A stretch of DNA of 64,000 bases from Bacillota bacterium. GTDB lineage: Bacteria; Bacillota; Clostridia; Christensenellales; UMGS416. Position 1 is the stretch's first letter. Each line of letters begins with the position of its first letter. The notes beneath the pieces are model-generated. The model ran no database searches, was not told the DNA's origin, and was given only the letters and a program-made list of their open reading frames with translations. Location of the stretch: the NCBI GenBank assembly GCA_023435705.1, contig JAEYRH010000005.1, positions 110,114-174,113 of the forward strand, read 5' to 3'. The position numbers were made by a program, and so were the translations under genes. Positions 7,976-8,464 of the stretch are shown one piece after another.

Positions 7976-8116
7976 TCAGCAGCAGCGGTTCTGCTCCTGC
8001 TTCTCTTTGGAGGGCTTGTTTGTTTGAGTGTGGGAGCCGCATCCGCAGCCAGTTGAAGCAGGCGTGCTCCCGGTCGGGCAGCAGTTGGGCGTCTCTTCGG
8101 TCTTCTTTCCGAACAT
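7976..8116 (-). CDS. Cys-rich microprotein C (46 aa), not in ORF track as such
   Basis: MFGKKTEETPNCCPTGSTPASTGCGCGSHTQTNKPSKEKQEQNRCC. Strong RBS AAAGGAGG 7 nt before the ATG at 8116. The 95-aa track ORF 7976-8263 is an over-extension. Confidence 0.6.
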   Translation of the reverse strand: MFGKKTEETPNCCPTGSTPASTGCGCGSHTQTNKPSKEKQEQNRCC

Positions 8117-8147
8117 GGTGAATCCTCCTTTCAAGTATTCTATTGGT

Positions 8148-8297
8148 TCAGCAGCAATACTGTTCCTTGTATTCCCTGCACTCCAGCCTGCAAAAGTGAT
8201 CCTTCTCCTGATCCTGTTCCACCATGGGCATCGCCGTAAGGGCAACCTCCAACAATACGTCAAACATAGTCTTCATTTCTTTCATCCTTTCTTTCAT
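8148..8297 (-). CDS. Cys-rich microprotein B (up to 49 aa; several in-frame ATGs)
   Basis: MKERMKEMKTMFDVLLEVALTAMPMVEQDQEKDHFCRLECREYKEQYCC. Preceded by a 12-nt direct repeat AGGATGAAAGAA x2. Below the track's length cutoff. Confidence 0.4.
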   Translation of the reverse strand: MKERMKEMKTMFDVLLEVALTAMPMVEQDQEKDHFCRLECREYKEQYCC

Positions 8298-8326
8298 CCT
8301 ATCGCAGGGTTCTGTTCCAGCCTGGC

Positions 8327-8464
8327 TCAGGAGAGCTCATGGCTGCGGGCTTGATACCCGATGCATTCCACCTTGCAGTATTCCTGTTCCGCCGAATTGT
8401 TTTCCGGCAGAATCAAGAGCACCACCATCACAAACAGTACAAAAATGATCATCAACATATCCAT
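8327..8464 (-). CDS. small membrane microprotein A (43-45 aa)
   Basis: MDMLMIIFVLFVMVVLLILPENNSAEQEYCKVECIGYQARSHELS, with one TM helix. GGAGAG RBS lies right after the permease stop. Shares a [YF]C[KR][VL]ECxxY motif with microprotein B. Confidence 0.4.
   Translation of the reverse strand: MDMLMIIFVLFVMVVLLILPENNSAEQEYCKVECIGYQARSHELS

Follow-up and report, generated by a model that had tools for sequence, protein, structure and literature searches.

Unannotated cysteine-rich micro-proteins encoded with an ArsR-controlled PF03773 permease in an arsenic/mercury-methylation island

Introduction

Do very small, cysteine-rich open reading frames (ORFs) that trail the gene for a metal(loid) permease represent genes, and if so, what could their products do? 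The question is raised by a stretch of 64,000 nucleotides (nt) from a Bacillota bacterium (contig JAEYRH010000005.1), here called the window, in the coordinates of which positions are given unless another locus is named. Three such ORFs, termed A, B and C, follow a gene for a member of PF03773, a family of small-molecule and metal(loid) permeases. We find that all three ORFs are small but real genes, which share an operon with this ArsR-controlled exporter and reside inside an arsenic/mercury-methylation island. While small thiol proteins and small proteins with a terminal vicinal cysteine pair (CC) beside transporters are a known theme, two unannotated micro-protein families are new here, of which the one comprising A and B is clearly defined.

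Results

A, B and C are genes at the end of an ArsR-permease operon

All genes of the operon are located on the minus strand, in the order ArsR, PF03773 permease, A, B and C, followed by a terminator hairpin, and the compact unit is read from 10040 to 7890 (Table 1). The first-pass annotation, made from the sequence alone, had described three consecutive small ORFs on the same strand between the permease stop codon (TAA, 8480-8478) and the hairpin and had proposed their co-expression with the permease under ArsR-family control. The description is confirmed and the proposal is supported. All three ORFs are present on the minus strand, the genes are co-oriented and separated by tight spacers (permease-A 19 nt, A-B 41 nt, B-C 31 nt, C-hairpin 17 nt), a pair of sigma-70-like promoter matches is found upstream of the first ArsR gene and the terminator follows C. 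The hairpin had not been reported by a simple terminator scan because its loop exceeds 8 nt; folding confirmed it. Its stem of 12 G+C-rich base pairs is followed by CAUAUUUUU, and both of its arms are kept in the related locus L002. In the ArsR protein, a vicinal cysteine pair (IGTCCDRIEY) occupies the place of the canonical ELCVCD site, and the GTCCD motif is also present in ArsR of locus L029.

All three ORFs are real genes. The exact sequences of A, B and C are contained in the public protein collection as called genes without names, and the gene caller used on a near-identical public contig had called them as proteins of 43, 45 and 46 amino acids (aa), respectively. The boundaries originally assigned to C (7976-8116) are retained, with the ribosome-binding site AAGGAGG 7 nt ahead of its ATG (8116), whereas the starts of A and B had to be moved. 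The most likely start of A is the ATG at 8458 (MLMIIF...), 6 nt downstream of the sequence GGAGAG (8470-8465), which directly abuts the ATG at 8464 chosen earlier. For B, the most likely start is at 8285 (MKEMKTMFD) instead of 8297, and the stretch EMK[TS][MI]FD is kept in L003. The vicinal CC with which B and C had been said to terminate is their true C-terminus, because the TGA stop codon that follows it in the window is replaced by TAA in L002 in both genes and the read-through frames are not conserved; selenocysteine read-through after -CC-UGA was rejected on the same grounds.

Of 7,878 small ORFs in 80 loci, 11 contain the motif [YFW]C.[VLIA]E[CY], and nine of these adjoin the permease gene on the same strand. 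Conservation of the reading frames in related genomes, on which the first-pass annotation had staked its proposal, is borne out by relatives in other genomes that keep the frame as well as the cysteine motif beside PF03773 permeases, and three of these permease-adjacent relatives (L081, L083 and L093) were reached through protein similarity alone. The expected purifying selection is only in part apparent. B (0.36, 0.44) and C (0.37, p = 0.04) have pairwise ratios of nonsynonymous to synonymous divergence (dN/dS) of less than 1, which does not hold for A and its closest relative (0.91); ORFs of this length are too short to give such a test much weight. The main evidence that A and B are genes is family-wide conservation.

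Independently of this, a comparison of window positions 8148-8480 (-) with L002 (5093-5430) revealed a synonymous and intergenic divergence in A, the A-B spacer and B that is far below that of the adjacent permease gene (5 synonymous differences versus 14.5 expected, p = 0.001), while C and the permease diverge normally. A structured RNA overlapping A and B was considered as the cause and rejected, the region having no Rfam match and a fold z-score of only -2.45. Recombination or constraint at the RNA level may underlie the low divergence.

A and B belong to one family with a conserved cysteine motif

A and B had been noted to share the element [YF]-C-[KR]-[VL]-E-C. This element, YCKVEC in A and FCRLEC in B, turned out to be the family-defining motif and, judged by their alignment, A and B are paralogues in one unnamed and unannotated family. 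Their alignment extends to small ORFs in other genomes that directly follow permease homologues (L002, L003, L006, L010 and L074); an A/B-like small ORF is located just before the permease homologue in L027. A profile search of 5.8 billion proteins yielded 11 A/B-family clusters, and an exhaustive HMMER scan of 1.84 billion representatives returned 33 matches, 29 of which are proteins of 39-65 aa. Among the proteins recovered by the profile in the latter set are members that were absent from the query (P0021-P0047), and a search of metagenomes with a sub-family alignment led to one locus, L088. The scores of A and B against the family hidden Markov model (HMM), 70.8 and 71.9 bits, respectively, are circular, as the model was built with both sequences included.

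Nearly all matches share one architecture, with members comprising 40-55 aa. A strongly hydrophobic helix that begins at residue 1-2 (mean Kyte-Doolittle (KD) value ~3.0-3.6 over 17 residues) is followed by a short linker, usually with Pro or Gly, and by a second helix that carries [DE]-E-[FY]-C-x-[LVA]-E-[CY] and often ends in ...RKPCC. In one branch, CRAEYLQC or CKLEYIEC replaces the C-x3-C arrangement by C-x6-C. The largest branch continues as ECWS[RK]RKPCC and thus contains four cysteines, a pattern also found in B (FCRLECREYKEQYCC), and a C-terminal vicinal cysteine pair is present in many members, B among them. Peptide A has the helix, the linker and the motif, while B retains the cysteine motif behind a weakened first helix. 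Since this helix contains D and E and is only weakly hydrophobic (mean KD 1.5 versus ~3 in the family), B probably does not span the membrane and represents a soluble or peripheral form of the family. AlphaFold2 (AF2), supplied with the family alignment, predicted two helices for B (residues 2-18 and 24-43) with a mean predicted local distance difference test (pLDDT) score of 72.5. As the model is helical in this part, the C-x3-C thiols of B (i, i+4) are predicted to lie on one helix face; in a helix, both C-x3-C and C-x6-C place two thiols on the same face.

A, B, C and the family had no match in Pfam or NCBIfam, and profile searches against the PDB gave nothing meaningful. Even at E <= 1, Pfam returned none for B or C and weak YajC and ODV-E18 noise for A, and NCBIfam returned none for A, B and C, nor for seven related small cysteine-rich proteins (five of the MFKFKK/MFNFIKKK type, one of the A2 type and the L005 peptide; see below). 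The view that no described family has these features is thus upheld for the sequence families, while the idea behind it has precedent in SaoC/SaoE and DUF466. In a public collection, B is clustered with OmpA-like proteins of 480 aa. BLASTP shows no similarity, and this clustering artefact matters wherever cluster representatives stand for tiny proteins.

Genomic company of the A/B family

Synteny with PF03773 genes, which had been suggested as a check, applies to a part of the family only. Genomic contexts were taken via protein similarity, independently of the permease query, and all ten contexts reached in this way fit one of two patterns, in that the gene is located either after ArsR-PF03773 or within MarR-ArsM-ArsN1. 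P0006, P0011 and P0021 are encoded directly 3' of an ArsR-PF03773 pair, the truncated gene upstream of P0011 encoding a permease C-terminus. P0024, P0030, P0034 and the member from L088, on the other hand, are the products of the last genes of MarR-(methyltransferase)-GNAT operons, beside ACR3, ArsR or an ArsA/GET3-type ATPase, and the largest branch (ECWS.RKPCC type) belongs to arsenic operons of the MarR-(ArsM)-ArsN1 kind, next to which no PF03773 gene is located. A more distant branch with the motif YCYSEC.G[KR]H (A2 type) heads the MarR-methyltransferase-GNAT operons of L029 and L086 and is encoded ~3.7 kb upstream of the permease in L022; all three loci have an ArsR-PF03773 unit no more than a few kb from the A2-type gene. 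In L029, the methyltransferase was identified as an arsenite methyltransferase (NF008823, 316 bits versus a cutoff of 263) and the GNAT acetyltransferase as a member of ArsN1 family A (ArsN1a, 232 bits versus a cutoff of 170). On the basis of these two operon contexts, the A/B family is best regarded as an accessory of arsenic-type islands, present in anaerobic Bacillota as well as in a few further lineages, and not as a strict partner of the permease.

The MarR-type regulators of the ArsM-ArsN1 operons in L029 (6636-7079 (-)) and L088 (1282-1749 (+)) share SCC..T..QCHAIVEIG, and the L029 copy ends in KKCC. Their best NCBIfam match, BilQ, is far under cutoff, and by sequence they look like an undescribed cysteine-based branch of metal(loid) sensors. 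In L089, the MarR and ArsN1 genes are separated by an ORF of 52 aa (3262-3420 (+)) with similarity to the ArsM N-terminus (…KEYYGGIARN…NSCGCGESC), which was probably left behind when arsM was deleted.

Peptide C and other cysteine-rich peptides

In the set of 5.8 billion proteins, C has a single close relative. This protein is encoded in L002, is 67% identical and keeps all six cysteines, the sequence MFGKK and the C-terminal KEKQEQNRCC, and the ribosome-binding site is kept as well. Indels are present in the B-C spacer but absent from the ORF, and the frame is intact at a synonymous divergence (pS) of 0.36, compared with 0.30 in the permease. The AF2 model of C, calculated from a two-sequence alignment, consists mostly of coil (pLDDT 51), and C is predicted to be a cytosolic peptide that is intrinsically disordered, specific to its lineage and endowed with three cysteine clusters. 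It resembles the permease's own cysteine-rich loop (local similarity, E = 3e-5) as well as the N-terminal extension of HgcA, encoded 2.3 kb downstream (E = 0.002), the latter with the same CC-x10-CGC spacing and then a terminal CC. By these similarities, C appears to be a free-standing copy of a module type seen in the central loop of the permease and at the N-terminus of HgcA.

Hydrophilic cysteine-rich small ORFs occur beside this permease clade in unrelated lineages as well (L005, L029, L022, L086, L034, L035, L070, L075, L084 and L094), those of L005 and L070 being singletons. The family MF[KEN]FKK...ECECCGSM...SCCGP (P0012-P0020, P0056-P0064) comprises proteins of 55-106 aa, the genes of which are never more than ~4 kb away from one for PF03773; in three cases, this context was reached without the permease as a query. 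Membership of C in this family is not supported (hhalign probability 12% over 10 columns), and the HMM scores of C against the MFKFKK-type model are circular, the model having included C. We therefore treat C and the MFKFKK-type peptides, on the basis of these profiles, as probable analogues and not as homologues.

Small ORFs with poly-Cys tails are found in L034 (96-206 (+), …DFYPICCCCCCKKEK) and L035 (23-178 (+), …DFHPICCCCCNKK), ~3.3 kb upstream of a cysteine-rich peptide and the permease, both encoded on the plus strand. The L035 ORF, which runs off the start of the locus, reads by eye like the C-terminus of sigma-70 region 4, and genes for sigma factors of the extracytoplasmic function type precede PF03773 in L084 and L094. 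The poly-Cys ORFs may represent a thiol-sensing sigma factor.

The permease

The permease reaches the cutoff for PF03773 and stays below those of the SO_0444 model (118 versus 300 bits) and the SaoE model (87 versus 325 bits), on which grounds we consider it a PF03773 member of an uncharacterized clade. It features a membrane-embedded PFCAC motif and a central loop with nine cysteines in 60 residues. Such a loop is near-universal in 79 related loci (6-11 cysteines in 60 residues). The notion that the small peptides substitute for a missing cysteine loop was rejected, as the loop is present in most related permeases and in all loci with small ORFs except L084 (4 cysteines).

Comparison with known systems

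In the survey by Haft (bioRxiv 10.1101/2022.07.06.499078), SaoC is a CysCys-COOH protein encoded beside the PF03773-type efflux protein SaoE, DUF466 proteins ending in RCC-COOH sit beside transporters, the CC ends of HgcB and SaoC are read as heavy-metal contacts and the CC end of SaoC is paralleled with that of HgcB and with the cysteine-rich N-terminus of HgcA. The resemblance to SaoC/SaoE is evident, i.e., a 'dark-matter' CC-ending protein beside a PF03773-type permease with a C-x-C membrane motif in anaerobes. B and C combine the CC end with PF03773 adjacency, while A follows the PF03773 gene but lacks the CC end. However, SaoC comprises ~158 aa, is equipped with a signal peptide (or lipoprotein signal peptide) and is regarded as extracellular, whereas A, B and C have 43-46 aa, neither signal peptide nor lipobox and no match to NF040734. 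Furthermore, the permease falls short of the SaoE cutoff as given above (SAO models NF040734, NF040736), and the other genes of the nine-gene SAO locus are missing. With DUF466 proteins (YbdD/YjiX, encoded beside CstA-type transporters), the peptides have in common the small size, the transporter neighbor and, in the case of C with its terminal NRCC, the RCC-COOH end. They differ from them in having no Pfam match and in the transporter family and its presumed substrate (pyruvate or peptides).

ArsD and metallothionein-type buffers (SmtA/BmtA) are soluble proteins in which cysteine pairs or clusters bind As(III) or soft metals; ArsD passes As(III) on to ArsA, while metallothioneins act as buffers. 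Vicinal cysteine pairs bind As(III) in the ArsD chaperone as well as in ArsR sensors. A comparable binding or buffering role is proposed for C, which, however, is related to neither in sequence or fold (no Pfam, NCBIfam or PDB match), is much shorter and has neither the thioredoxin-like fold of ArsD (~120 aa) nor the zinc-finger-like fold of SmtA. MerT, MerF and MerE are very small membrane proteins, the cytoplasmic C-terminal cysteine pair of which passes on Hg(II) by ligand exchange. The A/B proteins are likewise very small, based on a cysteine pair and encoded in a metal-resistance operon. Unlike the Mer proteins, which have two to three membrane helices with a cysteine pair in the first, they have one helix that is devoid of cysteine. 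A, B and C matched none of the metallothionein, ArsD or MerT/MerF/MerE/MerP models in Pfam and NCBIfam and no solved structure. The permease, finally, belongs to the same Pfam family as ArsP, the methylarsenite efflux protein of Campylobacter jejuni, and has a comparable paired-cysteine membrane motif. ArsP-type genes co-evolve with arsM and often precede the gene for a small thiol protein such as the thioredoxin-like ArsE (PF13192) in P. mercurii. Here, in contrast, the slot of the partner is taken by non-thioredoxin micro-proteins and the permease has a long cysteine-rich loop. Since sequence and size set them apart, A, B and C are, by these measures, not members of the SaoC, DUF466, ArsD, metallothionein or Mer families, with which they share a functional theme.

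Proposed function and alternative explanations

The genes, their family, the conserved cysteine geometry and the genomic associations with ars and hgc contexts are the observations from which any functional proposal has to start. We propose that the A/B proteins and C bind soft metal(loid) ions (As(III), methyl-As(III), Hg(II)/methyl-Hg) as thiolates, their genes being co-transcribed with that of the exporter, and assign to this proposal a probability of about one half. It draws on composition (vicinal pairs, C-x3-C), on precedent (ArsD, ArsR sensors, MerT/MerF, HgcB and SaoC/SaoE) and on genomic context. The N-terminal hydrophobic helix, degenerate in B, would anchor A-type proteins in the membrane, and the second helix of A and B would display a pair of cysteines on one side. 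In the cytosol, the ion would be buffered or carried by C; at the membrane, A and B would retain it and, through ligand exchange, deliver it to the exporter, either at the PFCAC site or at the cysteine loop. In MarR-ArsM-ArsN1 operons, an A/B-type protein would alternatively take the ion from ArsM-type enzymes or service them.

Several points weigh against this proposal. Small ORFs of this kind are limited to about 17 of the roughly 80 loci of the permease clade, in which the cysteine loop of the permease itself is almost universal, so that the peptides would be dispensable accessories, and half of the A/B-family contexts are devoid of an adjacent permease gene, which disfavors the role of an obligate permease subunit. 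Peptide A contains just two cysteines and shows the above-mentioned dN/dS of 0.91 versus L002, and the positive-inside distribution of charges does not orient the A-type tail. For C, there is the one close homologue only, and profile comparison does not support its link to the MFKFKK family. Moreover, sequence cannot separate arsenic, organo-arsenic, mercury and Cd/Zn/Cu as substrates, and the NCBIfam model nearest to the permease, with a sub-threshold score, describes a Cu/Zn efflux family. Membrane insertion and topology, metal binding, the identity of the metal and contact with the permease are those parts of the proposal that we infer.

The A-type proteins could instead resemble AcrZ, KdpF or MgtS in being micro-subunits of membrane transporters with a structural or regulatory role, and tune stability or specificity of the PF03773 protein via helix-helix contacts, with cysteines for folding, dimerization or redox gating rather than for carrying metal. 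Small single-helix partners of transporters are well established, nearly all family members have the hydrophobic helix from residue 1-2 and the gene starts 19-24 nt after the permease stop codon in the window, L081 and L093. However, many members are encoded in MarR-ArsM-ArsN1 operons without a transporter gene alongside, the invariant positions are Cys and Glu of the soluble helix and not residues of the membrane helix, and B lost the hydrophobic helix and retained the cysteine motif. We consider such a subunit role possible but unlikely.

Somewhat more doubtful still is a far-reaching extension of thiolate binding, a thiol relay dedicated to the organometal(loid) traffic of anaerobes, in which a cytosolic C-type carrier would load a membrane-tethered CX3C/CC adaptor of the A/B type that in turn would feed the paired-cysteine site of PF03773 exporters and service ArsM and HgcA. 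The N-terminus of HgcA carries the same CC-CGC-CC module.

The peptides might also act as thiol sensors or modulators that report the metal(loid) or redox state to CC-bearing ArsR/MarR regulators or shield these, or ArsM/HgcA, from over-metallation. They co-occur with regulators containing CC motifs (GTCCD in ArsR; SCC...QCHAIVEIG and the KKCC tail of MarR in L029), and the A2-type gene comes first in the MarR-ArsM-ArsN1 operons of L029 and L086. Given that we found no precedent for so small a sensor, that the gene may come first or last in the operon and that nothing ties the peptides physically to the regulators, this explanation is improbable.

Even less is to be said for the view that one or more ORFs, most plausibly C, are non-functional or very young and owe their cysteines to G+C-rich, TGC-repeat-prone DNA, e.g., as a decayed copy of the permease loop. 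The single close relative of C among 5.8 billion clusters, its local similarity to the loop and the marginal dN/dS evidence (p = 0.04) are in line with this view, but L002 keeps the six cysteines, the N-terminus, KEKQEQNRCC and the strong ribosome-binding site, has its indels in the B-C spacer and none in the ORF, and the frame is intact despite a pS of 0.36 (permease 0.30). For A and B, family-wide conservation excludes it. The least probable explanation, exported thiol-rich metallophores or precursors of ribosomally synthesized and post-translationally modified peptides with the permease as their exporter, accounts for small cysteine-rich products encoded beside a transporter but was rejected because the window operon and the related loci examined contain no radical-SAM, cyclase, protease or other maturation gene, and it is further contradicted by the absence of a visible leader/core organization, by PF03773 proteins being known as small-molecule and metal(loid) permeases and by C having no signal sequence.

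The surrounding arsenic and mercury-methylation genes

The hairpin behind C is followed by a further transcription unit (Table 1) in which a complete hgcA-hgcB pair is located directly downstream of arsR2-acr3-arsC on the same strand. The window HgcA is extended at its N-terminus by a cysteine-rich segment (MPESCCSGSPRKRKQPCGCNQ...PEPCC) in which the CC-x10-CGC...CC layout of peptide C recurs, and similar extensions are present in HgcA from L003, L007, L010 and L060. In six of the 79 loci, HgcA is encoded within 4 kb of the permease; three of these six carry an A/B-family gene (Fisher p = 0.005, ignoring shared ancestry). Genes for hgcAB flanked by acr3, arsC, arsR and arsM (PMC7438021; bioRxiv 10.1101/2022.10.17.512643) as well as cysteine-rich (CC or CU) N-terminal extensions of HgcA (bioRxiv 10.1101/2022.07.06.499078) have been published. 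The publications consulted contain no mention of the PF03773 permease of this clade or its micro-ORFs.

The gene at about 10130-11256 (+), divergent from the first ArsR gene, encodes an aldo/keto reductase that carries a 2x[4Fe-4S] domain at its C-terminus. Aldo/keto reductase-like sequences are also present in L002 and L003, and the same pair of domains adjoins the A-family gene P0024 in L090-L092 (L090 4287-5387 (-)). The enzyme may be a recurrent member of these islands.

Table 1. Features of the operon with A, B and C and of the adjoining ars/hgc unit (window coordinates).
Feature	Position	Strand	Remarks
Two overlapping sigma-70-like promoter matches	9998..10038	-	TTGACA-18-GAAAAT, TTTACA-17-TACAAT; consensus scan only, putative function
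ArsR/SmtB-family regulator, 100 aa from ATG 9965	9663..9965	-	PF01022 8e-10; NF033788 60 bits versus cutoff 55
PF03773 (ArsP_1) permease, 365 aa	8478..9575	-	PF03773 137 bits versus cutoff 32.3
Peptide A, 43 aa	8327..8458	-	N-terminal hydrophobic helix, mean KD 3.6; YCKVEC; alternative start 8464
Peptide B, 45 aa, paralogue of A	8148..8285	-	Weakened amphipathic first helix; FCRLEC; C-terminal YCC; alternative starts 8297, 8276
Peptide C, 46 aa, hydrophilic, 6 Cys	7976..8116	-	Layout CC-x10-CGC-x18-CC, ends NRCC; ribosome-binding site AAGGAGG
Intrinsic-terminator-like hairpin and U-rich tail	7894..7958 (stem 7903-7958)	-	Fold -31.8 kcal/mol, z = -3.0; closes ArsR-permease-A-B-C unit
Next transcription unit	4197..7888	-	Promoter-like site, ArsR2, ACR3, ArsC, HgcA, HgcB
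Second promoter-like site	7860-7888	-	Directly after hairpin
ArsR2	7443-7817	-	ELCAC site
ACR3	6401-about 7459	-	TIGR00832, acr3 386 bits versus cutoff 283
ArsC, low-molecular-weight-phosphatase (LMWP) type	5965-6375	-	
HgcA	4494-5711	-	NF040863 486 bits versus cutoff 275; NVWCAAGK cap-helix motif
HgcB	4197-4481	-	130 bits versus cutoff 99; ends DCC

Significance

Mercury methylation by HgcAB as well as anaerobic arsenic methylation and export are environmentally important processes in which delivery and removal of the soft metals are poorly understood. In several genomes, the A/B family is encoded within a few kb of hgcAB, and its proteins of ~45 residues, which can be synthesized cheaply, are candidates for missing metal hand-off steps around ArsM, ArsP and HgcAB. 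If the far-reaching thiol relay were true, arsenic methylation and export would be physically coupled to mercury methylation. The finding is solid as an annotation result and moderately interesting in biological terms. It illustrates that standard cutoffs for ORF length hide conserved parts of metal-resistance islands, and should the peptides be simple buffers, it would still be a useful annotation that provides two new families for Pfam or NCBIfam.

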